In this document: piece after piece, positions 29,676 to 49,425 of the stretch | How positions within the stretch are numbered: position 1 is the stretch's first letter | Layout: each line of letters opens with the position of its first letter | Origin: Lachnospiraceae bacterium | GTDB taxonomy: Bacteria > Bacillota > Clostridia > Lachnospirales > Lachnospiraceae | Assembly (NCBI GenBank): GCA_045117315.1 | Contig: JBGUNJ010000204.1 | Coordinates: 4,378 to 68,377, forward strand | DNA length: 64,000 nt | Direction of reading: 5' to 3' | Translations under genes and position numbers: made by a program | The notes under the pieces: model-generated | The model's input: the letters and a program-made list of their open reading frames with translations, nothing else | What the model was told of the DNA's origin: nothing | Databases searched by the model: none

Positions 29676-31073
29676 ATGAATTGTCCGTATTGTAATCAGG
29701 AAGTTATGCCGGGGAATAAGTTTTGCCCTAACTGCGGAGCAAAGCTGATACAAGATTCCAATATTAATCCAGGGGTGAATGCACAACCTGTTAATAATGG
29801 AATTGGTCAGAATGGCCAGTATCAACAGATGAATACTCCTCAGCCGCAGGGAGGACAGCCATATAATCAATATCAGCAGCAGGGACGACAGCAAGGGCAG
29901 CCAAATTATCAAACCCAATACCAGGGAGGACAGCCGGGGCAGCCAAATTATCAATCCCAATATCAGGGAGTCCAGCCGGGACAGCCATATAATCAATCTT
30001 CAATACCGTCCCCTAACAACCAGAATAATACTAAGAAGAGAAGAAGGAAAAAAGGCGGATTTGTCAAATATGTACCTTTAGTTGTTTGCGGCCTACTCGC
30101 CATTATTCTTTTGGGAGCATTGTTTTCGGATTCTGATGAAAAACCCCAGGAAAAAGAACAGGTCACAAGTGAAGAAAAGGCAATTACAGAAACAGAAGAA
30201 ACTGTTGAAAGCCAGGCGGAAGCAGAAAATGGAGAAGAAAACCAGGGCCAGGCTGAAATAGAAGGAAATGCATCTGATACTGAAATTATTGTGGAGGAGG
30301 AAAGGCGAGATCCTGCGGAATTAGATTTTTCTGCTGCCAGAGAAGAACTTGAAAACGGTGGGTATGCATATATCACACTGGAAGATATGAGCCGCTATAT
30401 TGTCAATATGACCGGACAGAGAATATATACAGTCATGACAGTGGGCGATGTTAAGTCTGACAGAGTTCAGACACATGCTGACGATGGTTTTCTTTACCAG
30501 TCATTCGTAACACCAATAGATTATTCAGAGTATTTTCATGAAGGCGATGTTGTTGCAGTTTTTGGAACTGTTGGTGAAACACAGAAATTATTCGGAGCGG
30601 ATTGGACCGATGTTGTTGACAGTCAAGTGTTTGCATATGGAGAAGAGGCGGAAGCTTATAGGAAAGATTCTACAGATGAGTCACTTTCGGGGTATCTTGT
30701 TTTGACAGAAGCAGTTGCGAACTCGCAAGGAAAAAACAAGATCAGCGAGGATGAATTCAAGTCTCTTTGTGAATACTATTCATATGAAGATATACTTCGT
30801 AATCCTGACAGCTATGAGAAGAGATATGCAGTTCTCTCTGGCGTAGTCGATCAAAGTGCTGAAGGTGTTTTTGGCTTGTATACCACTTTGTATATAACAG
30901 ATGGAAATGGCGATAAATGGGATTGCACAATCACTTATAAAGAAGGGCAAAGCCATATTCTGGAAGGAGACTATGTAACGGTTTATGGAATATTAAACGG
31001 TACATCGACAGCTACCACTGTTTTAGGACAACAAGTCACCATGCCTTCTCTTCAGATTGAATATGTTGAGTGA
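29676..31073 (+). CDS. Zinc-ribbon membrane protein with a Q/P/G/Y-rich region
   Basis: MNCPYCNQEVMPGNKFCPNCG is a zinc ribbon. QGGQPGQPNYQSQYQG-type repeats and a TM segment (YVPLVVCGLLAIILLGALF) follow. Strong RBS gagaggaggaaaaa. This is the first gene of the A+T-rich block. Confidence 0.65.
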   Translation: MNCPYCNQEVMPGNKFCPNCGAKLIQDSNINPGVNAQPVNNGIGQNGQYQQMNTPQPQGGQPYNQYQQQGRQQGQPNYQTQYQGGQPGQPNYQSQYQGVQPGQPYNQSSIPSPNNQNNTKKRRRKKGGFVKYVPLVVCGLLAIILLGALFSDSDEKPQEKEQVTSEEKAITETEETVESQAEAENGEENQGQAEIEGNASDTEIIVEEERRDPAELDFSAAREELENGGYAYITLEDMSRYIVNMTGQRIYTVMTVGDVKSDRVQTHADDGFLYQSFVTPIDYSEYFHEGDVVAVFGTVGETQKLFGADWTDVVDSQVFAYGEEAEAYRKDSTDESLSGYLVLTEAVANSQGKNKISEDEFKSLCEYYSYEDILRNPDSYEKRYAVLSGVVDQSAEGVFGLYTTLYITDGNGDKWDCTITYKEGQSHILEGDYVTVYGILNGTSTATTVLGQQVTMPSLQIEYVE

Positions 31074-31160: not shown

Positions 31161-32006
31161 ATGTCTACTGAGAACTATGTCTATAAAAAAGAAGTTGATT
31201 GGTCCCTCTTCAACTATGGTTTCGCTATTCCCTTGGAATATCAAGTGGTCTTCAAACAGATTGCCGGCCGCTTTCTTGAGCGTGGAGAATCTAAACCAAT
31301 CAAGCTTTATTTGAACGGAAAATCTTATGAAGCTAAGCTCCAGAACAACCGGATAGACAAAAAATTCGGAAGCAGGGCCGATATTGTTCAAATTCGCTAT
31401 TCTCAGAACTCGGACATTGCGATTGCGCTGAGAGGTTCCTTTCAGCGCAGCTACCTGTATATCCAGAAGATAAAGCAGATGCAGCAAAAAGGATCTAAGT
31501 CACGAGTGTCGCTGCCCGAGGATTACAAAGAGTATTTGGTAATTTACACCACCGAATATGATGATTCCTATATCCTTGAGGCCATCGGTTCAGAGGAAGT
31601 CGAAACGATGAGAGAGGCTGTTAAAGGGAAAGCAGAGCGTACGGTGGAGTCAGAAATCGATTACGAAGCTGTGGATGAGGGAGCCGGTATTCAAACAAAT
31701 CATCGATTGGTCAAGCTTAGGAAACTAAATAGGAAGATTGGAGAAAATCTGAAATTACTGTACGGGTATCGCTGCCAGCTCTGCGGTCAGCTGATTGGAG
31801 AGGAATTCGGTTCTCACATTGCAGAGGCTCATCACATAGAATATTTCGTGAAGAGCCTGAATAACGATGCCAGCAACCAGATTATCGTCTGTCCAAATCA
31901 CCACAGTATCATTCATGATGCGGATCCGGTCTTTGACAGGAAACGAAAGCTGTATAGGTACGGAAATGGGAAGGAGCAGAGGTTAGTTCTGAATCGACAT
32001 CTTTGA
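31161..32006 (+). CDS. HNH endonuclease with an uncharacterised N-terminal (possibly DNA-binding) domain
   Basis: The C-terminal CQLCGQ...AEAHHIEYFVKSLNNDASNQIIVCPNHHSIIHD is a beta-beta-alpha-Me HNH motif. The N-terminal ~110 aa (GFAIPLEYQVVF...IKLYLNGKSYEAKLQNN) are unassigned. Confidence 0.8.
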   Translation: MSTENYVYKKEVDWSLFNYGFAIPLEYQVVFKQIAGRFLERGESKPIKLYLNGKSYEAKLQNNRIDKKFGSRADIVQIRYSQNSDIAIALRGSFQRSYLYIQKIKQMQQKGSKSRVSLPEDYKEYLVIYTTEYDDSYILEAIGSEEVETMREAVKGKAERTVESEIDYEAVDEGAGIQTNHRLVKLRKLNRKIGENLKLLYGYRCQLCGQLIGEEFGSHIAEAHHIEYFVKSLNNDASNQIIVCPNHHSIIHDADPVFDRKRKLYRYGNGKEQRLVLNRHL

Positions 32007-32177
32007 TGTTTTTGTCTTTTGATATCTATTAAAAAAAGCTATGAACAAAGTACTCTGGGTCATGCCACACAGGATACAAAGAGAACAGACAAACTGAATT
32101 GGCTTGATAATGAAAAAACATAAGCTGAAGCAGCTATATCCATAGAGCGCATTAACTTAATCAGTTAAATTAATAAC

Positions 32178-32774
32178 ATGAATACAAACACCACACTTGA
32201 TTATTACAATAATAACGCGTATCGCTTCACAGCGGATACCCTGGATGTCGAATTCTCCGACATCCAGGACCATTTCCTTGCCGAATTGCAGCCCGGGGCA
32301 TTGATCCTTGATTTTGGTTGCGGTTCTGGCCGTGACAGCCGATATTTCCTTCAAAAAGGGTACAAAGTTGAAGCCTGCGACGGATCGGAAGAGATGGTGA
32401 AAACAGCAACCAAAAACGCGGGAATTCCTGTAAAGCAGATGTTGTTTTCTGAGCTGGATGAGCAGGAGCGGTTTGATGGGATTTTTGCCTGTGCTTCGAT
32501 TTTGCATGTGCCGTCAGCAGAGCTTCCGGACATTATCGGGAAGATGAAGAAAGCTGTGAAAAAGGGTGGCATTCTGTACATATCTTTTAAATACGGAACC
32601 TTTGAGGGGGTCCGCAATGGCAGGTATTTTACTGATCAGACAAAAGAGAGTCTCAAACAGATTCTTGATCAGGTCGGCGGACTAAACATTATCAGCACTG
32701 GAATTACAGGCGATGCCAGGCCGGGAAGAGAAGACGAGAAATGGCTGAATGTATTGCTTCGCAGGAGAGCTTGA
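32178..32774 (+). CDS. Class I SAM-dependent methyltransferase (small-molecule-type fold; no DNA-methyltransferase motif IV)
   Basis: ILDFGCGSGRDSRYF (motif I) and KVEACDGSEEM (motif II) are present. No (D/N/S)PPY or PC-Q motif is visible. Confidence 0.75.
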   Translation: MNTNTTLDYYNNNAYRFTADTLDVEFSDIQDHFLAELQPGALILDFGCGSGRDSRYFLQKGYKVEACDGSEEMVKTATKNAGIPVKQMLFSELDEQERFDGIFACASILHVPSAELPDIIGKMKKAVKKGGILYISFKYGTFEGVRNGRYFTDQTKESLKQILDQVGGLNIISTGITGDARPGREDEKWLNVLLRRRA

Positions 32775-35368
32775 ATAATACAATCGAATATTGTCAAAGC
32801 GAATTACTGAAACGGATTCAAGAAGACTGCGGACTGAAGCTGGCAGAAAACTATTACTATGATGAAAAGCATCACTCCGCAGTTCTGCTCTGTGATAAAA
32901 CCTGCGTCGTACTGGACTTTGATCTTTGCTCAGTCGATGAGAACACAGATAAGGTTTTTGACTACTCAAAATACTGCGAGATGCAGAATGCCTGGATGCT
33001 GTCCTCCGACAGATTATTCCGTTTCTATATTCCTGCGGAATCCTTTTCTGGGAAACCAGATTCATCTGATTCTACAGATTCCTCCCTGAAATCCTGTAGA
33101 ACAGATTTCATCCAGCCTGTCTGCGATGAAATCAACCATTGGCTGACCCTGGATCCCGGGAATATCGAGGTCAGTGATAACGGTGGATCATTTGATAAAG
33201 GGCATATTGATAATACTCCTCTTGAGAAGACATTCGAGGATTTATTTATTGATGCCTATGGTTATGATGCCTTGAATTATCTGCAGAAAGAGTACTCAAT
33301 ATCCCTTAATCAGGGAAGAAATGCTTTTGTTGATTATGTGATTGAGACTGCTGAAGGTACCTTTGCTGTAGAAGAAAACGGTGTTCGCTACCATCACCCA
33401 CAGATTATTCACTTGGCTGCTTACAGCAGACAACTGGAAAAGCAGAATACCCTAAGTCTTCTGGGATTCAAGACATACAGATTTTCTTTTGAAAACCTAC
33501 GATTCCGGGAGCAGGCAATCGACAGTATAAGGACCTTTTTCGGGCCGAAGAGCGGCTTCCGCAGTGCTCATCTGATTAAAGGTACAAGACCTTTCGCTCT
33601 CTATACCCATCAGGAGACCTTTCTGAAGGAAATGAATGAAGCCCGTGAAAATGGCATTACAACATCTTTGATTGTCAGTCCGACCGGTTCCGGAAAGTCT
33701 CAGATTGCGATTGAAGATATCAATGAGCTTCAGATAGAAGGCAAAATCAGCCGCGTACTGATTATGGTTCCGACCACCCGTATCCGTGAAGACTGGGAAA
33801 AGCGTCTTACTTCATACAGGGGTAAGCTCGATATTACCATTGATCTGTATAACAGATCCTTCCTGAGAAGGAGTGACACACCGCCGGATTATTATGATTA
33901 TCTGCTGTTTGATGAGGCGCAGCACGCGCAGGCGGCAAACTGTGCCAAGACCCTGCAGTTTTTTACCCCTAAATATCTGGTGGGCCTTACAGCAACTCCC
34001 GACCGCCTGGACCACAAAAAACTGGAAGATATCTTCGGCCATTACAAGACATCAATGACTCTGAAGGAAGCTATAGACAAGGATATTATCGCCAATATTC
34101 GCTGCTTCCGGCTTATATCCAATATCGATCTTTCCATGGTCCGTTATAACGGAAAAGATTATAACTATGCGGATCTGGAAAAAACTCTGATAGTGGAATC
34201 CCGCAACGAACTCATCGTAAAAACATTAAAGAAATACTTCTTCCCCAGAGAAGATTTCTATAAACAGGGGATACTGTTTTGTGTGAATGTAAGCCATTGT
34301 AAGAAGCTGGAAAAACTCATGACAGCTGCCGGATTTAAAGCGAAAGCTGTTTACGGCGGAAACAAGCACAATGACGAAATCTTTGAGAAATACGCGAACA
34401 GACAAACCCAGTTCCTTATATCCTGCCAGCTGATTTCGGAAGGGTGGGATTCCCCCCAGACCGAAGTGGTTGTCATGGCTCGTCCGACCCTGTCTAAGGT
34501 ACTCTACACACAGCAGATCGGACGCGGCGTCCGCAAATATCCTGGAAAAGAATGCCTCTATGTTATCGATGTGGTTGATAACTATGAAGGAAAGCTTTCC
34601 CCGATGAACTTCAATGCCCTGTTTGGACTGTCCCATTATTCGGATTTCATGGGCGTCAAAAACAATAACCATGACTATCTGTCAATCCTGGGACTGGACG
34701 AGACAGAGATTGCCATGCAGGAGATTGACATTCATACATTTGAAGAGAAATACAGCGGATATCTTTCTCCGGAGCAGGCAGCACGAGAACTCTTCATCGG
34801 CACTGCAACCATCATGAGCTGGTACAGAAAAGACAATTCCATCAGCTCCCTGCAACTTCCGATCGGATCACGCATGGTTCCGTATTTTTCTGAGGACGAC
34901 ATAGAAATAATCCGTGAAAGTCGCGGACTCGGACGTCACGATGACACAACTATCCTGAAAGACTTTGAAGATTTCATCGATGAAAACACACTGACATTCT
35001 CCTTCAAACTGATCTTCATGCTCAGCATGCTGAAACTGGCGGACAAGGAGGGCGAGGTCAATATCGATGACCTGATCAACGAATACCGTTCATTTTACGT
35101 TGACAGGATTGAACGAGGACTGCCGGTTGACAGACCAAATTGTGCGTATACAAAAGAATTCCTCGATGATCTTGTCAAAGTAAAAAGATCGATCCTGACA
35201 AACCCATTTGAAAAGTTTGAGCGCAAACGCTTTGTCTATTATTCAAAGGACCTGAACATGCTGTCCTTCCATCCGGCACTGTGGGAGCAGATGACGAAGG
35301 AGAAGAAACAAGTGATCAGGGAGAAGGAAGAACGGTTTTTGGAAGAGTATTATGAGAAGATTGGGTAA
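32741..35368 (+). CDS. SF2 DEAD/DEAH-box (type III restriction Res-like) helicase with an N-terminal DUF559/Vsr-like nuclease fold and a C-terminal extension
   Basis: Nuclease-like VDYVIETAEGTFAVEENGVRYHH...GFKTYRFSFENL, then SPTGSGKS (motif I), LLFDEAQHA (II), GLTATP (III) and QQIGRGVR (VI). The start overlaps the methyltransferase gene by 34 nt. Confidence 0.8.
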   Translation: MAECIASQESLNNTIEYCQSELLKRIQEDCGLKLAENYYYDEKHHSAVLLCDKTCVVLDFDLCSVDENTDKVFDYSKYCEMQNAWMLSSDRLFRFYIPAESFSGKPDSSDSTDSSLKSCRTDFIQPVCDEINHWLTLDPGNIEVSDNGGSFDKGHIDNTPLEKTFEDLFIDAYGYDALNYLQKEYSISLNQGRNAFVDYVIETAEGTFAVEENGVRYHHPQIIHLAAYSRQLEKQNTLSLLGFKTYRFSFENLRFREQAIDSIRTFFGPKSGFRSAHLIKGTRPFALYTHQETFLKEMNEARENGITTSLIVSPTGSGKSQIAIEDINELQIEGKISRVLIMVPTTRIREDWEKRLTSYRGKLDITIDLYNRSFLRRSDTPPDYYDYLLFDEAQHAQAANCAKTLQFFTPKYLVGLTATPDRLDHKKLEDIFGHYKTSMTLKEAIDKDIIANIRCFRLISNIDLSMVRYNGKDYNYADLEKTLIVESRNELIVKTLKKYFFPREDFYKQGILFCVNVSHCKKLEKLMTAAGFKAKAVYGGNKHNDEIFEKYANRQTQFLISCQLISEGWDSPQTEVVVMARPTLSKVLYTQQIGRGVRKYPGKECLYVIDVVDNYEGKLSPMNFNALFGLSHYSDFMGVKNNNHDYLSILGLDETEIAMQEIDIHTFEEKYSGYLSPEQAARELFIGTATIMSWYRKDNSISSLQLPIGSRMVPYFSEDDIEIIRESRGLGRHDDTTILKDFEDFIDENTLTFSFKLIFMLSMLKLADKEGEVNIDDLINEYRSFYVDRIERGLPVDRPNCAYTKEFLDDLVKVKRSILTNPFEKFERKRFVYYSKDLNMLSFHPALWEQMTKEKKQVIREKEERFLEEYYEKIG

Positions 35369-35622: not shown

Positions 35623-36133
35623 AAAAGATTAGCTACAATCGTACCAAGGGCACTTATGGCAGCGCCACATTTACGGAGAAAAGAACAGCGACTATTCACG
35701 CACTTACAGATAAAGAAGAATGTGCAGGATTATAGCTTTGCCGACGGCTATGCAAAGGAAACAGTGTAGAACGCCGTATGGTCGAGGATATGGATCTAAC
35801 GGAAGAAAATCTGCATCTCTACCAAGTTGTCGAAGGGAATCTACATGCCGACACCTGTGGGAAATAATCTTCTCCGTCTGGTCCATTGCCTTCAACATAT
35901 GGTCAGGGAAGCATATCTTCTTTATTGCCGAACCAAAAGGCACTATGGAGACGCTGTACATCAAGCCCATAGAACAGGCCAAAATCAATTGTGTAAAGAA
36001 GCTGTTTGCAGACCTCTACGCAGTAGACATGGTTTACCGTAATGTGGACAGCTGCCAGAGTCTGTTTAACATCATGGAGAGTTGCAACAAAGAACTAGAA
36101 AGGATAATACTATGGCGCAGCATATTACTGTAA
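35623..36133 (+). pseudogene. Frameshifted remnant of the 3' end of a type III-like restriction enzyme Res subunit
   Basis: Fragments in two frames resemble a Res C-terminal nuclease region. These are IYMPTPVGNN then (frameshift) FSVWSIAF, then GKHIFFIAEPKGTMETLYIKPIEQAKINCVKKLF, compared with the TPxGxYxPDWAI ... YFVxETKG ... KIxCxxxHF layout recalled from memory. Stops interrupt the upstream sequence. Confidence 0.45.
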
Positions 36134-39100: not shown

Positions 39101-39837
39101 CTTCTCAAAAAGGATTCACCTATTCATACGAGAAAAAGGACTTCAACGACGAGACCGGTTCAGAAAGCCTGGAACTCGCTTATGCCCTAACTGTCCATAA
39201 AGCGCAGGGAAGCCAGTTCGATACCGTAATCCTCGTCTTAGCAGAACCATGCAGGATCATTTCCCGTGAGCTCCTGTATACTGCACTCACGAGACAGAAG
39301 GATAAGATTATCATTTTGTATAATCAGGAGCCGTATCATCTAATGAAATATTCCTCTGATGTTCATTCGGATATTGCCAAAAGATTCACGGATCTCTTTG
39401 CTGATGTATTTACAGATGATGATGGTGCTCACAGACCTAAGTACACAAAAGTTGGAGACACCTTCTACGATGAGAATCTGATTCACAAAACTGCCCGTGG
39501 AGAACTTGTACGCACTAAATCTGAAGTCATTATTGCAAACGCGCTTTTCTATAATGATCTAACCTATGAATATGAACCAAAATTGATTCTGGATGGTCAT
39601 GTTAAGCGTCCTGATTTTAAAATCATCGATGCAGACACTGGTGACATTTGGTACTGGGAACACTGCGGATTGATGTCCGATAAACGTTACGTGAAGCGTT
39701 GGGCGGATAAAGAACAGTTTTATGCAAAACATGGAATTGTGCGCGGCAAGAACCTGATTGTCACTGAAGAAAAAGCAGGAGAAGGAATAGAATCCGATAA
39801 GATTGATGCACTTATAAAAGAGGTTTTTGATCTCTAA
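36112..39837 (+). CDS. Large RecD/Dda-like SF1 helicase with a Cys-rich N-terminal domain and a C-terminal PD-(D/E)xK nuclease domain
   Basis: GDAGTGKTT (Walker A, 37987-38013), LLLAPTGKA, VIVDEASML, VFVGDPNQLPPIG and YALTVHKAQGSQFDTVILVL are present. The C-terminal RTKSEVIIANALFYNDLTYEYEP...KRPDFKIID...IWYWEHCG is nuclease-like. The N-terminus is ITVRVPWHDDGWKGTVCQNP..NMACLRL. ATG 36112 is preceded by gaaagga. Confidence 0.85.
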   Translation: MAQHITVRVPWHDDGWKGTVCQNPSSNMACLRLKNIHENRNDVVECKLCGQGMIEHERDIPCIEEGAAFMCDHELHKMTVHPYKKSNPDTHGHFLETELIFPAYSFPARPFSWLMRDNLKKRAEFYGINYRPEIEPELKFKTIWVQAADNHRAVFDYFYKDVVPDTSLCIAYAKQVPFVEDHRRVIIGMGHVKKIVPAIEHRHTEEGVLRSMIWDTMVCHSIRDHHNNGFVIPYQEMMKYAEEHPEFDLTSIVVFAPEDAFDEFSYATEHVSHDAVIDVILSCINSFRIIQKCLDEDYTNVLSWLNSQLDTVWKDRGPFPGLGPVLTAFGIKLGIPMAKEIREQMQKTDDYWGYLDRVIAQPESYLSKEIASTVTPIIQKTWKDLKRIRKEYLKLLCRFSLNIDQANALYDQNTRENEQIHCTDLEILENPYLLYEKMRLKQDALYLSVQKVDRAIFPVPSISEKYPLQAPSKLQSDNDERRVRAVVISVLEAAADSGHTFLPCNIAVKHVQELTLDPACPVTSDMISAIEAFMSLEIIKREMKNGDEYYKLVRLNVFDHEIERRIKKRMKAKKIDVQADWRQMLDKKFDGLGAGKPGSNLEDMARAEKAEALKVLAESRLSVLIGDAGTGKTTVLSVLCSHPDIAAGGVLLLAPTGKATVRLVESVGTGGQKFTALNVAQFLIKSHRFDWKNFRYRLSNENYTDLPETVIVDEASMLTEEMFGALIQAVGTVKRIVFVGDPNQLPPIGAGKPFVDLVNLLKEDLPEIQPLDQPRVAPCFAELRINRRQQLKQQIEEERLDVSLSHCFTRSENLEDDEGIISEIVKGTSEEIQILHWESGEELESKLLHIVAKELQMKDPDDQDGFNRAMGAKVLEYETFFNKECVEYVNKWQILAPIRNMPQGVINMNRLFHQKYRGRQLELSRRTGYKKKIPVAYGSEEIVYGDKVINVINSKKIAFPKDSSANNYVANGEIGIACGSYAKKNQKANNYLNVCFSSQKGFTYSYEKKDFNDETGSESLELAYALTVHKAQGSQFDTVILVLAEPCRIISRELLYTALTRQKDKIIILYNQEPYHLMKYSSDVHSDIAKRFTDLFADVFTDDDGAHRPKYTKVGDTFYDENLIHKTARGELVRTKSEVIIANALFYNDLTYEYEPKLILDGHVKRPDFKIIDADTGDIWYWEHCGLMSDKRYVKRWADKEQFYAKHGIVRGKNLIVTEEKAGEGIESDKIDALIKEVFDL

Positions 39838-39877
39838 ACAGCAGACGGAACAGGTTAAAAGGAAAGAAATAGAGAAG

Positions 39878-42800
39878 ATGGATGAGAAATATATCGTAAA
39901 TACAATAAACACATTTCTTCATGCTTCAGCCAGTAGTCTTTGCGCCTGGCTTGAGAAAAGACTGCCCTGCGTGTCTGATACATGGTGGGAAGATTGTGTT
40001 CTTGGGAGCTTAAGTCCCTTGCAGCGTGAAAACATACAGAATATGGGATACAGCAAGCTTTCAGAACTTAGTCTCTCGGAATTACTTCGTATTACCAATA
40101 AGTCATGGTATGACATCTGTACGGTGGCTGAACTCCCATCTTCTCTGCGTGAACTAGTGCGAGATATGATCTCGGTATGTAACAACTGGTCATATTCTGT
40201 AAGCACGATTCCAGGTAAAGATATAATTATTTCGGATCTTCATATAATTTCTTCTTTTATAGACGCGATAGGTGAAGGAACTGCTAAAAATAAGGAAATT
40301 GCAGAACTGATAGAGGAAATAGAAAAGCCAGACAGTTTGAAATCGGTTCGAAGAAGTACCGGTAGTTTCGAAAATGAAAGCGGGCAGTCGTCAGCCGATT
40401 CTGCAGAAGATGAGATAAAGGAAAACAGCCTTATATATCTTGTCTCAGATCCAAACGTCAAAGGAGTGGTCCGATCCATTAAAGACCTAGGCAGTATCAA
40501 AAAATATGTGGTTTTCATCAGCAATGATGTAGGAAGTCAAGTTTTTTACTCCGGGCAGATTGCACTTGTCAGAGAAAGTACTGCTTATAATTGGGTGAGT
40601 GCGGACACGGTCAGAAGTTTTCTGGCTGCATACCAAATAAAATATCCTTCTTCACAAAATCTATATTCGCTCAATTCCGCAAAAATTGATTTTGTACCAT
40701 ACCAGTTCAGACCGGCATTGAAGATGATCCATGCGGATGAACCTCGAATACTGATCGCTGACAGCGTTGGTGTCGGCAAAACGATTGAGGCTGGTCTGAT
40801 CATAAAGGAATTGGAGGCAAGAAATGATATACAGAGTATTGTAGTCATATGCCCACGGCCATTAGTTGCTGAGGGAAAATGGAAAATGGAGATGGAACGC
40901 TTCGATGAAGGCTTTTCATCCCTGGATGGAGCGACATTCAGGCAAATATTGTCTGATACTGATCGTGACGGTGAGTGGCCATCTCAATATAACAAAGTCA
41001 TCATTCCATATTCGATAATGGACAGCCGTTCCTATGAAGGGGAAGAGCAGGGAAAAAAGAGATTATTTGGATTATCAGAACTATTTCCAGAACCACACTT
41101 TGACTTGGTAATTGTTGATGAGGCACATCATATACGAAACGGCAGCATGGAGAAAGAAAAAGCCTTTGCGTATAAGTGCACAAAATATTTTTGTGACCAT
41201 GCTGATGCAGTTGTCATGCTGACGGCAACCCCTTTGCAAACCGGAGACAAGGATTTGTTCACGTTACTGAATGTCCTGCGTCCTGACATAATTATCGACG
41301 AGCAGACATTCCAGGTTATGAGCAAACCGAATGAATACATTTCGAGGGCAGCTCATTGCATTCGAACTGCAGAGTATAATTGGGCAAAAATGGCTATAAA
41401 GGAACTGCTGGGAGTTCGAAAAACACAGTGGGGCGATAATGTCATATCCGAAAATCCGCTCTATGACAGTATCCTACAAAGGCTGGAAAAACATGACATT
41501 ACAAGAGAAGAACGCGTCAGGCTGATTTCTGATGTAGAATCCTTGCATAGCTTTTACACCCTGATCAACAGGACCAGACGCCGTGATATTCAGGATTTTT
41601 GTATTCGCAGAACATTTACCTATGAAGTTGCTTTCACGGAATATCAGCAGGATCTGCATGACGAACTGCTTGAGTTTGAAAAGAATGCGCTGTCCATACT
41701 TCACGATCCGCGGGGCGTTTCTTTTATGATGTCAACGATTAAAAGACAGGCTGCAAGCTGCATTTTTGGACTTGGACCTCATATTCGAGGAATTCTTGAA
41801 AGAAGAATCCGGCAGATGAATGATGATCCTGATTTGGATTATGACTTTATCAATCTTGATGCCGCAGCAACAGACCGTCTGTCTCAGACTGCAAAACGGG
41901 TTCTGGACCTTGCAGAAAACCTTCCGGAAGAAGATCCAAAGTTTGATGAATTGATAAAAATCATCGAGGTGAAATATCAACTCGAAAACAATAAGATTAT
42001 GTTATTCAGTACCTTTCGTCATACGCTTGCATATTTGAAAAAGAGGCTGAAGAATCTTGGATATAGGGTTGAGCAGATTGACGGAAGTGTTAAGGATGAT
42101 ATCCGATTCGCATATAAAGAAAGGTTTCAACTGAGTAAAAACGAACCAGATGCAATTGATATCCTTCTATTTACAGAAGTAGGTTCAGAGGGGCTTGACT
42201 ATCAGTTTTGTGACACCATGATCAACTATGATCTGCCATGGAACCCTATGCGGATTGAGCAGAGAATAGGCAGAATAGATCGGCGTATGCAGAAAAGTGA
42301 AGCTGTAAACATTTATAATATTATCACGGAGAATACTGTCGATGCCGTAGTCTATCATAGATGTCTTGAAAGAATAGGCGTATTTGAACGTAGTATAGGT
42401 GAATGTGATGCAATATTAGGTGAAATAGCGGCTGGCATCGAGATTATTATGATGGACAATTCCCTAACGGATGAAGAACGAAAGATAAAGTTAGAGCAGA
42501 TGGCTGACAATGAAGTCAGAAAGATGCAGGAACTTGAAAAACTGGAGGAAGAAGAAAAGGATTTACTTGGATTCGATTTTTCTGAAATTGGGACTGCACA
42601 GGAAATCAAACATGCGGAAAATCCCTGGCTGACACAAAGAAACCTTCGGCGCCTGGTAGAACAGTATCTGAAAGAAAGACTTGGGGAGGGACCCTATATA
42701 CTGGGATCTTCTTCAATTAATACATTGCGGCTTTCTGCACAAGCCCGGAAGCTGATACGGGAAGACTTGTATAGGCTCTCTGGAAGGGGAAAGCATGCAC

Positions 42801-43483
42801 ACACAATATGGGATGCTTATTTGGGTGGAAAAAAGCCAACTATTCCAATCACATTCGATTCAGAAGCGGCAGCAAAGGCCAGGGACAATTCTACAATATT
42901 TGTGACTCCCATGCATCCCCTTGCACGTCAGGCTGCGGATTTGCTCACCAAGAGTTCAACGATGCAGTTGTGCCTGCATCTCTATTCTGACAAAATTCCT
43001 GCAGGACAGTATTTGTATTCAGTATATGCATGGAGATATGCCGGTTTTAACTCATACACACGAATTATTACAGTTTGTGAGAATGAAGAAATTGAATCTG
43101 AGTTGCCTGACATTCTAGAGGATTCAACCGAATATCCTATCGGGTCTTCAAATGCATTTGACTGGACGGGCTTGGAACTTCGCCATGTGATGAAGTGGCA
43201 GAATGCTGTTGCAGACTATCAGAGACGTATTAATACATCTAAAGCCTTTAAGTTAGAAACTCTTTCCAATAACTACAGGAATCAGATGAGATCCCTTGAG
43301 CGAAAAATTAACGTTGCTGCCAATGATTCCATAAGACGTATGTATATGAGCGAAATGGATAATATATCAGATATGTTTGAAAAGAAGAAAATAGAAATCG
43401 AGCAGACTAGGGCAGAAATTTACACGAATATACTGGTCAATGGTGTAGTTAGAGTCTCAGAGGAGATAGAGAGTCATGCTTAG
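39878..43483 (+). CDS. SNF2-family (RapA/HepA-like) helicase with a ~290-aa N-terminal extension
   Basis: ADSVGVGKTIEAGLIIKEL (motif I, from 40760), VIVDEAHHIRN (II, 41117-), MLTATPLQ (III) and LFTEVGSEGLDYQFCDTMINYDLPWNPMRIEQRIGRIDRRMQ (V-VI) are present. ATG 39878 is preferred over the TTG at 39827 in the ORF track. Confidence 0.85.
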   Translation: MDEKYIVNTINTFLHASASSLCAWLEKRLPCVSDTWWEDCVLGSLSPLQRENIQNMGYSKLSELSLSELLRITNKSWYDICTVAELPSSLRELVRDMISVCNNWSYSVSTIPGKDIIISDLHIISSFIDAIGEGTAKNKEIAELIEEIEKPDSLKSVRRSTGSFENESGQSSADSAEDEIKENSLIYLVSDPNVKGVVRSIKDLGSIKKYVVFISNDVGSQVFYSGQIALVRESTAYNWVSADTVRSFLAAYQIKYPSSQNLYSLNSAKIDFVPYQFRPALKMIHADEPRILIADSVGVGKTIEAGLIIKELEARNDIQSIVVICPRPLVAEGKWKMEMERFDEGFSSLDGATFRQILSDTDRDGEWPSQYNKVIIPYSIMDSRSYEGEEQGKKRLFGLSELFPEPHFDLVIVDEAHHIRNGSMEKEKAFAYKCTKYFCDHADAVVMLTATPLQTGDKDLFTLLNVLRPDIIIDEQTFQVMSKPNEYISRAAHCIRTAEYNWAKMAIKELLGVRKTQWGDNVISENPLYDSILQRLEKHDITREERVRLISDVESLHSFYTLINRTRRRDIQDFCIRRTFTYEVAFTEYQQDLHDELLEFEKNALSILHDPRGVSFMMSTIKRQAASCIFGLGPHIRGILERRIRQMNDDPDLDYDFINLDAAATDRLSQTAKRVLDLAENLPEEDPKFDELIKIIEVKYQLENNKIMLFSTFRHTLAYLKKRLKNLGYRVEQIDGSVKDDIRFAYKERFQLSKNEPDAIDILLFTEVGSEGLDYQFCDTMINYDLPWNPMRIEQRIGRIDRRMQKSEAVNIYNIITENTVDAVVYHRCLERIGVFERSIGECDAILGEIAAGIEIIMMDNSLTDEERKIKLEQMADNEVRKMQELEKLEEEEKDLLGFDFSEIGTAQEIKHAENPWLTQRNLRRLVEQYLKERLGEGPYILGSSSINTLRLSAQARKLIREDLYRLSGRGKHAHTIWDAYLGGKKPTIPITFDSEAAAKARDNSTIFVTPMHPLARQAADLLTKSSTMQLCLHLYSDKIPAGQYLYSVYAWRYAGFNSYTRIITVCENEEIESELPDILEDSTEYPIGSSNAFDWTGLELRHVMKWQNAVADYQRRINTSKAFKLETLSNNYRNQMRSLERKINVAANDSIRRMYMSEMDNISDMFEKKKIEIEQTRAEIYTNILVNGVVRVSEEIESHA

Positions 43484-46400
43484 AGAAATAAATGAATTGT
43501 ACGGAAATACTGACTGCAGAGATCTTGGATCCCGTCAACTGGAAGAGTTGAGGGATGGCTTAAAAAACGTTTCACCTGAAGAAATCAAATCGTCATCCGA
43601 TGGGATTATGTATATTAAGCTACTCCATATGTTCAGATTTGCGGTTGCGGAAAATGACAAGTTTCATGGGGAGAATTATCCAAGCCTCCTCAACTCTTTG
43701 CTATCAGTCGGAGAGGATGGACTATACTCTAACAATCTTCGTTTTATTTTTGAATTGATTCAGAATGTTGATGACTGCGATTATCCAAACTCTGAAAACT
43801 GTCGGCTTGATATGCAATTTCGATTTGATGAAGATGAGATTATCCTCACATATAATGAAGTTGGATTTACACCGTTTAACGTTTTTGCTATCACAGGAAT
43901 TGCAGAAGCTGCTAAGAATATTTCTTCTTCAAAAAATGAAATTGGTGAAAAGGGGATTGGATTCAAGTCGGTATTTGGCGTTGCTGATAAAGTCTTGATT
44001 CAAAGCGGCTGGTTTTCTTTTATTCTGAATAAAGAAAACTTTACAGTACCTATTTCAGCATATTCATCATCCTCCGATCCTTACATTGAGGGAACGAAAA
44101 TGACTCTGTATGTTCCCGGGAAAGCAAAGCTTATTTACAGTCAAATCAAAAACCAGTATTGCAAAAAAGAAGCAATCTTCAGTCGAAATCCACTGCTCTT
44201 TCTGAATAAGCTTACGTCTCTGAATATCTTCTTCGACGAATGGAGAAGAATGGAGTTTCATGTGTCTAAGAAAGCACATATGACAGAAGGCGGTATTCAC
44301 AGAGAGGACAATATACAGGTCTTTGTTGACCTGCATGATTATGATAACGGACGAGATACGAATGTAACAGAATCATTTATGTGTACCAGATATACCCTTC
44401 CTGTTACATACAGCAGGGAGGCTTGCCAGGCCCGCTATGGAGATAATACAAAGGTGGGTGAAAATGGCGGGAAAAGAATGCTGTTACAAGCGGTTCTTCC
44501 GACCCCGGAGCATGTTGCAGATGTCGGGAACGGATCATTATACTCTTTCCTCCCTACACAGCTGAAGCTGACTGTGCCGATTGTAATACATGTTCCCTTT
44601 AAGCTGGATGCGTCAAGAGAATTTGTTGATCCGCAGAATCATAATCGTTGGTTTCTTGAATCTTCACAGAAACTGTCAGAATTGATGGAGTATCTGTATA
44701 AAGACTGGTGTAAGACTGTTAGAAGTGACATTGTATTCTTTCTTCCAGGGGCCAGAGAGAGCCTGTTTGCTCCAAACAATGGGAAAGAAAAGTGTCTCAG
44801 TGATAACAAAGATTTCCAGGGGATTCATTTTTTGAAGATGCCTGTCTTTATAACAACAGACGATGAATACTGTCCCCATCAAGATGTTTTTTCTTTTAAC
44901 CCGGATGAAAATGTGATGGATCCGGAAAGAGTATACAAAATGCTTATGGTAGAGGAAAATCTTTTCCTGGTACCTGAAACAGTGAATCCAAGAAAATATG
45001 ATATAAAAATTTTTAAAGATGCAGCTAAGGAACTTCTGCAAAAGGCCATTTCCAACCCGAATGTGACAGAGGAAGCGCTTGAATATTTAGATAGTGTTTC
45101 ATATTTATATGGTCCAAAGGATATTCCTGACAACAAGCAGATTAGCCTGACATGCAGACAGATTGAGATCATTATGAAGCATGAACAGCTTGCGAAGATC
45201 TTTACAGAAGTAACCTGCAGGTTGCTGAAAATGCAAAAAAACATCCAAGTATCCATTGCTGATTTGAAGCCTGTTCCCATTCACAAAGCTGTTCAAGCGG
45301 GCTTTGATAAAAGTGAAACCCCAAAGCGTGTGGAAAGATACTTGGATAAAGTGAATTTGCAAAGTGTATGCTTGGATATTAAGGATAACCAGTATTTGCC
45401 TTGCAGTAACGGTCTTGTATTATCTATGGCAAATCCGACATCATCCTTAGCGTCTTTATGCTTTGCTGTTGATGAAAAGGATACATTTGCAATACGGATA
45501 AAGCTGAAAGAAGCTTCTGAACGCCTGAACCAATTTATTGAAGATGATGCAGGTTCTGCTGAGGATTATTTAAGAGAGCTTCGAAATATCAGGCTGACGG
45601 TTAGGGATTCTTTGGGTAATGAAGGCTACAAAAGCTATATAAATCTAATCCTCCGTTCGGGAACAGAGCGTAAACGTTTTATTCAGGAGCTTATCCAAAA
45701 TGCTGATGATTGTGTATACGATAAAGATATTATCCCAGCATTTTATTTACAACAGGATGGAAGCAAAGTTGTCACACAATATAATGAGGAGGGGTTTACC
45801 CGAGAGAACATCCGCTCTATTACAGCTATTGGGGAATCTACCAAAAACAGACTGCTCAAAGGGGAATATCAGACAATAGGCGAAAAGGGGGTTGGCTTTA
45901 AAACAGTCTTTGCTGTTGCATCTCAGATTAATATATTCAGTGGTGAATACAATTTCTCACTGACAGATGAGGCGCCTACAATTCCAAAGATTTATAAACG
46001 TACTGACCTTAGTAGAGTAGATGGTACAAGGATGGAGATTTTCCTGAAGGGAAACAGGAATATCATCGACTTTAATGAAAAAAACATACTTGAGCTCTGC
46101 CTTTGCCTGAGGCAATTAAAAGAAATCACAATTGGGCCCCACAAAATCAATATATCTGACACTGACGATACAAGAACATTGGTTATTGATGGAAGAAAAC
46201 AGGTATTTAGAAAGTTTGTACATAAGTTTGAAATTTCAGACCCAGATGCGATTAAGGAACGCGCAAGGGGTATGCATGTTGTTTTACCACAGCAGCAGAT
46301 TATTTGCTATGTTCCTGAACGGTTTGGCTCTCAGGAATATCATATTTACAGTGGGCTTCCGACAAGACATATGGTAAAGATCCCTGTTGCTTTCGATGCT

Positions 46401-48188
46401 CCTTTTGAGCTGACGACTTCCAGAGAGCAGATTGAAGAAGATTGCGAGGCATGGAATGGTCGTGTACGTCTGGAAATGTATAGGGCATTAAGGGAACTTA
46501 TTGTCTTTCTTCGAAATGAGCACAGAGTAGATATTCTTAGGCTTACCAGATATGTCCCCAGGTTGAAGGGAAAAATCAGAGAGTACGTGAATGATATTTT
46601 TGATAGCCCCTATTTGACCGGCTACAATTTTTTGGAAATCTTGAAAAACACCGAGATTTTACCAACTTATAATCACGATATATTTGAATCGGCAAACAGT
46701 GGACGAGCTCTGAGGTTTCCTGAAGTGGCACATTTCCTGTTTAAACAGGGCTGTTTTGGGGAGATTGACCCTTCTTCCGTTCTTGATATTAATTCAAAAG
46801 ATTATGAAGCGGCTATTAATGCGCTGGACTGTAAGTCTGCAATGTTTGATCAGGTATTTCCTTTGCTAATGATATACTCTGATAATTACGTACATGATAA
46901 AGAATATAGAACATTACTATATGAATATTTACAGGAATCACCTCATGAATATGCTGATCAGATAAAAAAACTTGCCATTATACCTGTATATGGAAATGTT
47001 CCAGATGCCACACGATTCGTGAAGTGGCAGCCGGACAAGATATTTGTCAAGAAAAATGTAAATAAATCAACGGATGATTATTTCATCTTAAACACGGATG
47101 AGCTTTCAAAAGCTTTCTGTGAAAGAATGTTAAATGTAAACATCAATGAGATGAATGATGAATGGGAACGTAGAAAATATGACGAGAAATTTAGAGCAAT
47201 CCTTGACTGGGAGGATGTAGAAGATATTTACAATATGCTTCTCTATGAATTCAAATATGGGAATGTGCGGAGAAACTATCCTTCCGGTCTACCAATGGAT
47301 TATAAGGAACGTATCCCCCTGAAAAACAGGAATGGGGTAATCGCCCGACAGCATCTGTTCCTCTGTCGGGAAGAAGTAGAATACTTCCCTGTAGCTATAG
47401 TTAAACAGATTACAGTAGCTGATGAATGTGCAAGGATGGCTGAATCAATTGGCAGTACTGATCTCTGTGATGTACATTATGAAGATTTTAATTACGACAA
47501 GCAGTTAGACGAAGATGATATTGAAGTTTTGATGGATGATTACTTTAATAATTCAGATGAGATTCTTAGAGGCTTTTATCAAGACGGGCTTCTGTCGGAT
47601 GAATTATTAGAAGAATATAACCTGAATTATCTGGCGAATAGTCGTGTAGATGACACTATGGATGATGAAGACTTTCCTAATGATCCTGTTTATAACAGAG
47701 AACAGCTGAGAAAGCACGTGAACAAGAAATTTGCTTCGCTGGTAAAAATAATTCCAATTGTTGTCGAAAGGACCGTTTATCGGGGGAAAGACCAAAGCGG
47801 AAATGTTTTTGATTTGCAAAACCGGGATACACGCGAAGGCGCGCTTCATATTTACGCATCATCTAAAAAGTATGGAATTTGTTTCTGCCAAATGTGCAAA
47901 AAGAGGAAGCCTAGCTCATTCATTGAGGTAAATAATCTTCAGATTTTACCCAAATACTATTTTCCTCAGATGAGAGTATCATTATGCCTTGAATGCAGTA
48001 AAATCTTCGAGGGCCTCCGTAAGAATGACTCCGTGCGAAAAGAGTATTTTAATTCGATAAAAAATCAAAAGATTGGAAACGAGGGAAACATTTGTGTTCC
48101 GATTGGTAATGACGAGTCATTAACCTTTACTGCTAAACACTTGGCTGAGATTCAAGAAATATTAAAAAGGTATGGGGATGATATTTAA
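43476..48188 (+). CDS. 1570-aa protein with two sacsin/MORC-like GHKL (Bergerat-fold) ATPase modules and a C-terminal Cys4 cluster
   Basis: There are two N-box-like motifs: RFIFELIQNVDDC (from about 43752) with GEKGIGFKSVFGVADKV, and RFIQELIQNADDC (from about 45687) with GEKGVGFKTVFAVASQI. The C-terminus has CFCQMCKK...CLECSKIF. The ATG overlaps the upstream stop by 8 nt, with gaggaga upstream. Confidence 0.8.
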   Translation: MLREINELYGNTDCRDLGSRQLEELRDGLKNVSPEEIKSSSDGIMYIKLLHMFRFAVAENDKFHGENYPSLLNSLLSVGEDGLYSNNLRFIFELIQNVDDCDYPNSENCRLDMQFRFDEDEIILTYNEVGFTPFNVFAITGIAEAAKNISSSKNEIGEKGIGFKSVFGVADKVLIQSGWFSFILNKENFTVPISAYSSSSDPYIEGTKMTLYVPGKAKLIYSQIKNQYCKKEAIFSRNPLLFLNKLTSLNIFFDEWRRMEFHVSKKAHMTEGGIHREDNIQVFVDLHDYDNGRDTNVTESFMCTRYTLPVTYSREACQARYGDNTKVGENGGKRMLLQAVLPTPEHVADVGNGSLYSFLPTQLKLTVPIVIHVPFKLDASREFVDPQNHNRWFLESSQKLSELMEYLYKDWCKTVRSDIVFFLPGARESLFAPNNGKEKCLSDNKDFQGIHFLKMPVFITTDDEYCPHQDVFSFNPDENVMDPERVYKMLMVEENLFLVPETVNPRKYDIKIFKDAAKELLQKAISNPNVTEEALEYLDSVSYLYGPKDIPDNKQISLTCRQIEIIMKHEQLAKIFTEVTCRLLKMQKNIQVSIADLKPVPIHKAVQAGFDKSETPKRVERYLDKVNLQSVCLDIKDNQYLPCSNGLVLSMANPTSSLASLCFAVDEKDTFAIRIKLKEASERLNQFIEDDAGSAEDYLRELRNIRLTVRDSLGNEGYKSYINLILRSGTERKRFIQELIQNADDCVYDKDIIPAFYLQQDGSKVVTQYNEEGFTRENIRSITAIGESTKNRLLKGEYQTIGEKGVGFKTVFAVASQINIFSGEYNFSLTDEAPTIPKIYKRTDLSRVDGTRMEIFLKGNRNIIDFNEKNILELCLCLRQLKEITIGPHKINISDTDDTRTLVIDGRKQVFRKFVHKFEISDPDAIKERARGMHVVLPQQQIICYVPERFGSQEYHIYSGLPTRHMVKIPVAFDAPFELTTSREQIEEDCEAWNGRVRLEMYRALRELIVFLRNEHRVDILRLTRYVPRLKGKIREYVNDIFDSPYLTGYNFLEILKNTEILPTYNHDIFESANSGRALRFPEVAHFLFKQGCFGEIDPSSVLDINSKDYEAAINALDCKSAMFDQVFPLLMIYSDNYVHDKEYRTLLYEYLQESPHEYADQIKKLAIIPVYGNVPDATRFVKWQPDKIFVKKNVNKSTDDYFILNTDELSKAFCERMLNVNINEMNDEWERRKYDEKFRAILDWEDVEDIYNMLLYEFKYGNVRRNYPSGLPMDYKERIPLKNRNGVIARQHLFLCREEVEYFPVAIVKQITVADECARMAESIGSTDLCDVHYEDFNYDKQLDEDDIEVLMDDYFNNSDEILRGFYQDGLLSDELLEEYNLNYLANSRVDDTMDDEDFPNDPVYNREQLRKHVNKKFASLVKIIPIVVERTVYRGKDQSGNVFDLQNRDTREGALHIYASSKKYGICFCQMCKKRKPSSFIEVNNLQILPKYYFPQMRVSLCLECSKIFEGLRKNDSVRKEYFNSIKNQKIGNEGNICVPIGNDESLTFTAKHLAEIQEILKRYGDDI

Positions 48189-48623: not shown

Positions 48624-49355
48624 ATGAAACTTGAACTAATTCAGACAAACATCGTCAATGTTTCAGCGGACGTGATTGTCCTGCCTGCCAATACAATGCT
48701 GAAGGAAGGAAGCGGTGCTTCCACTGCTATTTTCGAAGCTGCCGGACGCAGAAAACTCACCCAGGCATGTAAGAAGATTGGCTCGTGTCCGGCGGGAAGC
48801 GCGGTTCCGACATTGGCATTTAATCTGAATGCGAAATATATCATCCATGCAGTGGTTTCCAAATGGATCGACGGAAACCACGAAGAGTACGATCTGCTCA
48901 GCTCTGCTTATCTGTCTTCATTGAAAATTGCTGATGTTATGGGCTGCCAATCGATTGCATTTCCTCTGCTTGCTTCCGGGAATAATGGATACGATAAAGA
49001 ATTGGCATTTCAGATAGCAAAGGAAAGCATTGAATCTTTTGAAGGAAGCAGCCTGAAAAAAGCGGAACTTGTAGTCTATGGTTCCCGGATTACCGCGTGG
49101 CTCAGGGAACAGGGAAATGAAGTGATTGAAATTCCTGAAGATTTGGAAAAAGAGCGACAGAAGCAGGCTCATAAAGAGAAGGCAAAGCAATTTGCCGAAG
49201 AAGGAAAGGAAATAGCATATCGCTTCCTCGAAGACCAGATACAAAAAGGATTGGATTATCTGAAGGTGAAAGAAAACCGGGAAGAGCTTTTGAAGAAAGC
49301 CGTGAAAAATGTCAGAAAAGCAAAGAGTAAAAAAGAGAAGGAAAATATAAAATAA
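48624..49355 (+). CDS. Macro-domain protein with a K/E-rich C-terminal tail
   Basis: NIVNVSADVIVLPANTML..GSGASTAIFEAAG...AKYIIHAV...SIAFPLLASGNNGY matches the macro (ADP-ribose-binding/hydrolase) layout. RBS gagaggaag. Confidence 0.75.
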   Translation: MKLELIQTNIVNVSADVIVLPANTMLKEGSGASTAIFEAAGRRKLTQACKKIGSCPAGSAVPTLAFNLNAKYIIHAVVSKWIDGNHEEYDLLSSAYLSSLKIADVMGCQSIAFPLLASGNNGYDKELAFQIAKESIESFEGSSLKKAELVVYGSRITAWLREQGNEVIEIPEDLEKERQKQAHKEKAKQFAEEGKEIAYRFLEDQIQKGLDYLKVKENREELLKKAVKNVRKAKSKKEKENIK

Positions 49356-49425
49356 ACAATTATAGATAGAAACATCTGTGTCTGAAAAAATAAATATTAT
49401 TTTATTGAAGCTGGGACTTTACGAC

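Follow-up and report, generated by a model that had tools for sequence, protein, structure and literature searches.

A conserved methyltransferase/nuclease-helicase pair beside a separate HNH nuclease gene in a Lachnospiraceae defence island: two candidate defence units

In a 64,000-nucleotide (nt) stretch of DNA from a Lachnospiraceae bacterium (contig JBGUNJ010000204.1), which was analysed as a whole and is called the window below, three neighbouring genes encode an HNH nuclease, a small S-adenosylmethionine (SAM)-dependent methyltransferase (MTase) and a nuclease joined to a superfamily 2 (SF2) helicase. A preliminary description had taken the three as one compact cassette, and the question raised by the locus is whether they form one defence system or more than one. 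The layout given there, with three genes on the same strand and the helicase start lying 34 nt inside the MTase gene, was borne out by the calls of open reading frames (ORFs). Since the MTase and helicase frames overlap by 34 nt, translational coupling of these two genes is suggested; the HNH gene is by contrast separated from the MTase by an AT-rich gap of 171 nt. The HNH gene is very likely a unit separate from the MTase-helicase pair. The locus as a whole is read, with moderate confidence, as two independent defence determinants in a low-GC island, one a reader-HNH nuclease resembling type IV restriction enzymes and the other a restriction-like module of MTase and nuclease-helicase.

The conserved unit was determined from synteny. 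An alignment of 30 helicases was searched against one genome per GTDB species, which gave 35 loci, 30 of them informative, and phmmer was run on the ORFs of these loci. The loci belong to Lachnospiraceae, Erysipelotrichaceae (Solobacterium and Sharpea), other Clostridia, Acholeplasmatales, Bacteroidales, Sphaerochaetaceae and Methanomicrobium mobile, and the helicase family ranges over Firmicutes, Bacteroidota, Spirochaetota, Proteobacteria, Fusobacteria and the archaeon Methanomicrobium. A class I MTase of about 200 amino acids (aa) adjoins the helicase in 27 of the 30 informative species loci, mostly with a junction of -40 to +2 nt. The gene order flips, the MTase being upstream of the helicase in the clade of the window and downstream in others, and abutting MTase-helicase genes were also found in locus L058 and in Colwellia (L056). 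The HNH gene, on the other hand, was present in one of the 30 loci (L006) and absent from the other 29. All three genes therefore occur together only at very short evolutionary distance, the MTase-helicase pair is the conserved unit, and the single three-gene module of the preliminary description was not supported.

The HNH gene accompanies the helicase only in the window, in L006 and in the metagenome contig L001, all from close relatives within the Lachnospiraceae. Locus L006 is from an uncultured rumen Lachnospiraceae bacterium whose helicase is 95 % identical to that of the window, and in L001 the HNH gene lies directly upstream of the helicase. At this short evolutionary range the three genes persist together, which is expected of neighbours in an island and is not evidence of functional dependence. 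Homologues of the HNH protein with 67-70 % identity were found at sites of four unrelated kinds, none of which has this helicase or MTase: in a GmrSD/SLFN island; next to a MazG-like gene and an SLFN helicase; as a solitary gene between mecA and tsf/rpsB; and on an integrative element with a type I restriction-modification (R-M) neighbour. None of the homologue loci L045-L055 has a partner MTase of its own, and in L050-L052 the gene stands alone among housekeeping genes. The HNH family is large, with 1192 matches, nearly all of about 281 aa.

The HNH protein had been described as having an unassigned N-terminal domain, and this was upheld. Its first ~165 aa gave no Pfam match and no PDB sequence match, including by profile search. 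The domain had been likened, speculatively, to B3/EcoRII-N-type pseudobarrels; when its profile was aligned by hhalign, the probability was 0.4 % with the B3 domain of plant RAV1 (an approximate sequence) and 0.3 % with DUF3427. The HNH part follows the pattern CxxC...HH...N...CPNHH...H, which is clear despite marginal database similarity (best PDB match TagI, 6ghs, E 0.01; best NCBIfam match PT-DNA_restrict, 0.0015), and the residues C205-x2-C208, H224-H225, N239, C244-P-N-H247-H248 and H252 are invariant in the family alignment. A HMMER search with the N-terminal 170 residues gave 570 relatives, mostly reader-HNH proteins of the same size; among the relatives listed at 240-310 aa, 37 of 50 have the HNH pattern. 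The same N-terminal domain also heads McrB-like AAA_5 proteins, alone in P0433 and P0454, with EVE in P0426 and after MrcB_N in P0450, and it is joined to other HNH domains in P0448 (Pfam HNH 8.9e-11) and P0465 (8e-8). Because it occupies the reader position of the McrB family beside EVE and MrcB_N, it is considered a candidate modification reader. It has been reported that stand-alone nuclease fusions belong to type IV, being tolerable only if modification-dependent, while those adjoining an MTase belong to R-M (PMC11037411). Based on the solitary homologues, the reader-position domain and this rule, the HNH protein is most likely an autonomous, type IV-like modification-dependent nuclease, in which the N-terminal domain would bind DNA, probably sensing a modification, and direct the C-terminal HNH nuclease. 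Judged from sequence, it is thus best placed among the reader-HNH enzymes of type IV, and its reader domain would be one not described before. The modification-dependent restriction module suggested in the preliminary description is accordingly a good reading for the HNH protein, and for this protein only.

The motor of the helicase protein is its best-defined part. The SF2 motifs noted before (SPTGSGKS, DEAQH, TATP and QQIGRGVR) were all present, and PTGSGKS (Walker A) and the other three are invariant across 30 homologues of 59-94 % identity. Pfam matches were obtained for ResIII (3.3e-21) and Helicase_C (8.6e-12). The best PDB match was SauUSI (7clg, phmmer 1.8e-28), covering residues 294-625 and thus the core only, followed by 3h1t (1.5e-16); the core also matched EcoAI HsdR (3e-21) and REase_III models. 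Similarly, the PADLOC matches were confined to the motor (mREase_IV, 3e-31, and type I and PbeA models). Residues ~30-150 are the most variable part of the protein, with a mean pairwise identity of 48 %. The Vsr/DUF559-like nuclease proposed for the N-terminal part is consistent with the matches to PF18741 (MTES_1575), found in 18 of 18 family members tested (best E 3.5e-4), and with D198, E211, H218 and H219, invariant in the 30 homologues; however, every one of these matches lies below the gathering cut-off of 38.2 bits. The putative nuclease shows the pattern (D)...E-x-(D/N)-G-x-x-(Y/H)-H, and the MTES_1575 family has been described as a 'novel Vsr REase' (PMC3710099). A PDB profile search with the helicase N-terminus gave no Vsr match, just spurious ones to SarA.

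The C-terminal extension noted for the helicase proved real. It spans residues ~631-875, the last ~245 residues of the protein, and no Pfam match was found for residues 621-875. An AlphaFold model of this C-terminal domain (CTD), built from 40 sequences, had a mean pLDDT (predicted local confidence) of 85.6 and a pTM (predicted template modelling score) of 0.73, and it predicts a helix-turn-helix (HTH) of MerR/excisionase type followed by a larger winged-helix-like domain. For the modelled HTH, Foldseek gave local matches to RacA, BldC, Tn916 Xis and phage MerR/AlpA-type HTH proteins. The CTD model had no Foldseek match in the PDB at E <= 1e-3, only local winged-helix-like likeness to forkhead, MarR and MukE. 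In BFVD, a collection of predicted viral proteins, it strongly matched a 'DUF262 domain-containing protein' (8.9e-12) and an 'AAA ATPase' (2.4e-14), both from one Siphoviridae metagenome contig, with a TM-score of 0.73-0.74 on the query. The 11-residue motif NPFEKFERKRF shows no substitution in an alignment of 40 sequences, some with identity as low as 31 %, nor in any of the loci checked. From sequence and model together, the helicase is taken to be a protein of four parts: a Vsr-type nuclease, a SauUSI-like SF2 motor, an HTH and a novel winged-helix domain (Table 1).

Table 1 Coordinates of the three genes and of their domains and motifs in the window
Feature	Position	Strand	Remarks
HNH nuclease ORF	31161..32006	+	281 aa
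HNH protein, N-terminal domain	31161..31655	+	residues ~1-165; putative DNA/modification reader
HNH catalytic domain	31770..31919	+	residues ~204-253
SAM MTase ORF	32178..32774	+	198 aa
Overlap of MTase 3' end and helicase 5' end	32741..32774	+	34 nt; ATG at 32741
Nuclease-helicase ORF	32741..35368	+	875 aa
Helicase N-terminal region	32828..33190	+	residues ~30-150; invariant FDYSKYCEMQN motif
Putative Vsr-type (MTES_1575-like) restriction-endonuclease-fold domain	33290..33526	+	residues ~184-262; PF18741 matches (sub-threshold)
SF2 helicase/translocase core	33596..34594	+	residues 286-618; SauUSI/HsdR-like; ResIII and Helicase_C
MerR/excisionase-type HTH (predicted)	34763..34924	+	residues ~675-728; AlphaFold model and Foldseek
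Winged-helix-like 'X' domain (predicted)	34952..35365	+	residues ~738-875; AlphaFold model; no Pfam or PDB match
NPFEKFERKRF motif	35201..35233	+	residues 821-831; end of a long helix entering a beta-hairpin (model)

The MTase matched generic class I families only (Methyltransf_25, 1.8e-15; TehB, 2.2e-10; also Methyltransf_11 and Methyltransf_23), and its best PDB match was the uncharacterised protein RPA2492 (3e23, 1.9e-27). It carries the motif I sequence GCGSG. In an alignment of 28 partner MTases, GxGxG was present while FACASILHV or IADLSLHYF stood at motif IV, with no (D/N/S)PP(Y/F/W), and the Pfam families N6_Mtase and DNA_methylase gave no match. In line with the preliminary description, the enzyme lacks the motifs of classical DNA MTases. 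The partner MTases fall into two subfamilies that share 25-30 % identity and follow the helicase clades, and the MTase of the window belongs to subfamily A.

Degenerate loci gave further information about the pair. In L008, L015, L021 and L023 the MTase is intact, but the adjacent helicase is frameshifted or interrupted by an in-frame stop, and in L039 only a CTD remnant is left next to an intact MTase. Many of the loci are from metagenome-assembled genomes, in which frameshifts could be assembly errors; two of the disrupted helicases, however, belong to strains in culture, Sarcina sp. DSM 11001 and Sharpea azabuensis DSM 18934. The MTase and the CTD are fused in two proteins, P0289 and P0325, although the latter, which joins the N-terminal half of the MTase to the CTD and an S24 domain, was downgraded as a designed fusion as it may be a deletion product. 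A decayed MTase-CTD-S24 fusion lies in a Desulfobulbaceae island. Proteobacterial forms of the helicase have an S24 peptidase domain (LexA-like) at the C-terminus, and in Colwellia sp. MSW7 (L056, 5310-8248), where this extra domain is present, the helicase is split; CTD-S24 'fusions' were therefore rejected as new architectures, because this locus shows them to be C-terminal pieces of longer, split helicases. The SLFN-g3 helicase in L057 (11139-13496) also gave a weak S24 match. The S24 domains on defence helicases suggest control based on autocleavage. Fusions of an RF3-like GTPase to the CTD (P0271, P0273) were set aside since they look like chimeras.

The surroundings of the pair are those of defence genes. 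Its neighbours include BREX (L001, L002), SauUSI-like genes (L026, L057), GmrSD (L058) and SLFN helicases. In L058 (MT836124.1, 'UNVERIFIED: Bacteriophage sp.'), the only 'phage' record with the CTD, the pair lies next to a GmrSD_N gene, and this record was rejected as phage because a TRAP transporter makes it look like a bacterial chromosomal fragment. In 14 loci the start of the helicase gene is overlapped by a MazG-like (PF12643) ORF of ~105-120 aa, for example in L002 (7685-8011) and L026 (6615-6962), and MazG-like genes also lie beside SLFN-group-3 helicases (L048, L057), so that the pairing of a helicase with a MazG-like gene looks like a recurrent theme of defence islands. Another ORF of ~118 aa recurs near the helicases of three loci (L001, 10670-11026; L007, 6583-6822 and 12252-12767; L009, 2620-2961) and gave no Pfam or PADLOC match. 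The helicase of Methanomicrobium mobile BP (L033, NZ_JOMF01000009.1) is intact and 61 % identical to the bacterial ones, with a MazG-like ORF present, which looks like inter-domain transfer into a rumen methanogen. Taken as a defence module of some kind, the pair is likely to be classified correctly.

How the pair might act is a harder question. Because the MTase is near-obligate and coupled, the helicase decays beside intact MTases and the MTase is found fused to the CTD, a logic like that of R-M is proposed, as a tentative reading that may well be wrong. In such a mechanism, DNA would be bound by the HTH and winged-helix module at the C-terminus of the helicase, the SF2 motor would translocate along it at the expense of ATP, and the Vsr-type domain would cleave. 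The co-encoded MTase would provide a methyl mark or a SAM-dependent licence by which host DNA is spared. This would amount to R-M logic with a non-canonical MTase that has no target-recognition domain. It has been described that a SauUSI-type motor serves methylation-protected restriction of unmethylated DNA in MtsD of MANTIS (MANTIS preprint). A bolder version was also considered, in which the pair is an unnamed, phylum-spanning methylation immunity: the MTase, as a minimal enzyme of small-molecule type lacking a target-recognition domain, would write a non-canonical mark (not classical m6A, m4C or m5C) on DNA held by the HTH/winged-helix module, and the same module on the nuclease-helicase would read this mark to tell self from invader. 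This version as a whole is improbable.

Several observations weigh against reading the locus as a type IV-like HNH nuclease plus an R-M-like pair. The MTase, of ~200 aa, has neither a DPPY/NPPY nor a PCQ/ENV motif and no target-recognition domain in the alignment, and its database relatives are small-molecule-type or uncharacterised enzymes only. A PADLOC match to mad2 (3.6e-20) was discarded as a lead to a DNA-MTase, because the MADS profile hidden Markov models (HMMs) derive from HHpred/PDB alignments and the match is therefore non-specific; no further mad genes were found, MADS being an operon of eight genes (mad1-8). The nuclease assignment of the helicase is weak, all 18 PF18741 matches being sub-threshold. 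The CTD lacks the diversification expected of a sequence-specificity domain, with a mean pairwise identity of 66-70 % against 73.5 % for the motor, and the same fold is seen again in a GmrS-like (DUF262) protein, as would suit a type IV-like reader equally well. Intact helicases in L007, L019 and L033 have no MTase within 7 kb, and the MTase orthologue of L001 lies 6.9 kb upstream of the helicase. As for the HNH protein, its matches to Pfam HNH (E 0.002-0.006) reach 17-18.6 bits and fall below the cut-off of 21.4, and its N-terminal domain matches no known reader family by sequence. Furthermore, the window and L006 have only the three-gene block in common, with nucleotide identities of 91.1 % across the HNH gene, 97.7 % across the MTase gene and 90.2 % across the helicase gene, while the 300-nt flanks are ~50 % identical, as in random sequence; a local functional link is thus possible.

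Part of this evidence is accommodated by a different reading of the pair, as a type IV-like modification-dependent, ATP-driven nuclease, an analogue of SauUSI with a Vsr-type domain in place of PLD, in which the conserved CTD would read a foreign modification or structure of DNA and the MTase would be an accessory without protective function. The MTase could then be a regulator, a SAM sensor or guard, or a handler of nucleotides from degraded modified DNA, and it would act alongside the MazG-like gene of many loci, whose ORF overlaps the helicase start in 14 of them. The helicase core is indeed closest to SauUSI, and an undiversified CTD whose 11-residue motif is invariant across phyla fits a reader of a chemical mark better than a reader of sequence. 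The occurrence of the CTD fold on a DUF262 (GmrS-type) protein and an AAA ATPase, the intact helicases with no nearby MTase and the missing DNA-MTase motifs point the same way. However, such a nuclease needs no cognate MTase, yet in 27 of 30 species an MTase gene lies directly next to that of the helicase, the frames overlapping; the decay of helicases beside intact MTases is the pattern of a toxic restriction partner; and the fusions P0289 and P0325 suggest that the MTase acts on the substrate bound by the CTD. This reading of the pair is considered unlikely, though it deserves to be taken seriously, and the R-M-like logic is retained as the working proposal.

It is much less probable that the HNH protein, the MTase and the nuclease-helicase form one three-component system. 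The genes do share a strand with close spacing, the block common to the window and L006 is 90-98 % identical between unrelated flanks, and the HNH gene is still immediately upstream of the helicase in L001. Nevertheless, the HNH gene is missing from 29 of the 30 other helicase-bearing species loci, its homologues are solitary in four unrelated contexts, and its family is far larger than that of the helicase. The 171-nt AT-rich gap before the MTase stands against the MTase/helicase overlap, and in L001 the HNH gene has kept its place next to the helicase, but the MTase is now 6.9 kb distant. The last alternative, that the pair is a selfish addiction module or serves DNA repair or maintenance of a mobile element, with the nuclease-helicase toxin-like and the MTase its antidote, would explain the patchy distribution with horizontal transfer across phyla, the integrase and mobilisation genes near the pair in L002-L005 and the decay of helicases next to intact MTases, but it is also very improbable, as the neighbourhoods are dominated by recognised defence genes (BREX, SauUSI-like, GmrSD, SLFN helicases, PDC-S68) and addiction and defence are in any case compatible in R-M-like modules.

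In the window, a stretch of low GC content (~42 % against ~52 %) extends from ~29.5 to ~51 kb, and the three genes are found towards its left end. Directly downstream of the MTase-helicase pair, a gene at 36082-39837 encodes a 1251-aa RecD-like SF1 helicase that matches the PADLOC candidate single-gene system PDC-S68 from end to end (E = 0, 1512 bits). It is followed by a DrmD-like SNF2 helicase of 1218 aa (39827..43483), the gene of which overlaps the start of a gene for a TmtA-like (Tiamat) protein of 1570 aa with two sacsin/HSP90-type ATPase modules (43476..48188); the SNF2 helicase and the TmtA-like protein (39827-48188) are a possible two-gene unit and not DISARM. The low-GC island closes on the right with two genes (48624-50127) that may be another defence or counter-defence pair: one for a macro-domain protein (ADP-ribose-binding/hydrolase) and, 23 nt further on, one for a DUF6994 protein (3.7e-80). 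Because the low-GC stretch also carries the PDC-S68, DrmD-like, TmtA-like and macro-domain genes, it is regarded as a defence island. Directly upstream of the HNH gene, a gene at 29676-31073 encodes a 465-aa protein with an N-terminal zinc ribbon, a predicted membrane segment and a long low-complexity stretch rich in Q, P and G; it does not adjoin the block in L006. A promoter and terminator scan of the gap between the HNH and MTase genes gave nothing informative, a repeat scan found no repeats around the three-gene block, and Rfam and tRNA scans across the window gave no matches.

If the pair is a working defence, it would extend R-M-like immunity by a type of MTase never linked to DNA protection and would add a new DNA-binding domain defined by NPFEKFERKRF. 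The pair is widespread in gut and rumen Firmicutes and occurs also in Bacteroidota, Proteobacteria and a methanogen, and it could be a common, unrecognised barrier to phages and plasmid transfer. The N-terminal domain of the HNH protein is a candidate new reader of DNA modification that McrB-type systems also have, and this domain might be developed into a tool for mapping epigenetic marks, as modification-dependent restriction enzymes already are. The lesson for annotation is that neighbouring defence genes of an island should not be merged into one system without a synteny test.

When compared with known systems, the defence-type genes described here do not form a classical R-M system, as the preliminary description had already stated. 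No PADLOC v2.0.0 system model claims them; for the pair, just the helicase core and the generic mad2 profile were matched, and a literature search found no description of the MTase-helicase pair. SauUSI has the closest SF2 motor and the same order in a single polypeptide, namely nuclease, motor and C-terminal DNA-recognition region. However, the N-terminal nuclease of SauUSI is of the PLD family, its C-terminal recognition domain is DUF3427 and no MTase is required, whereas the helicase here has a putative Vsr-type nuclease fold, a CTD predicted to consist of an HTH and a novel winged helix, and a near-obligatory MTase partner. PLDc and DUF3427 were not detected in the helicase by Pfam, and the CTD model had no Foldseek match to 7clg.

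The coupling of an MTase gene to an ATP-dependent SF2 helicase-nuclease is a feature common to type III R-M (Mod and Res), type I HsdR and MtsD of MANTIS/Gao_RL, and the tight linkage of MTase and nuclease typical of R-M is present here (adjacent in 27 of 30 loci, mostly overlapping). The MTases of type I, type III and MANTIS systems are canonical N6-adenine enzymes with a specificity domain, either their own or a recruited one, and MANTIS needs four proteins. Here, by contrast, the 198-aa MTase has no recognition domain and no DPPY, and the predicted DNA-binding module is on the helicase and undiversified. No HsdS, HsdM or Mod was found beside the helicase in the window or the 30 loci, nor were homologues of MtsA-C. 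The putative helicase nuclease shares the pattern of the Vsr/DUF559/MTES_1575 group, with sub-threshold PF18741 matches, while Vsr proper is a small repair enzyme that nicks DNA at mismatches, is paired with Dcm and is not fused to a helicase.

The HNH protein resembles the reader-HNH type IV enzymes TagI, ScoMcrA (SBD-HNH), VcaM4I (EVE-HNH) and EcoKMcrA, as it is small, is encoded by a stand-alone gene and combines a putative DNA-binding domain at the N-terminus with an HNH domain at the C-terminus. It differs from them in that its N-terminal domain is unlike SRA, EVE, YTH, SBD, NEco, DUF3427 and winged helix by sequence and that the similarity of its HNH domain is marginal (E 0.01-0.05). On McrB-like proteins, this N-terminal domain is exchanged for, or found together with, EVE and MrcB_N, in the position of a reader.

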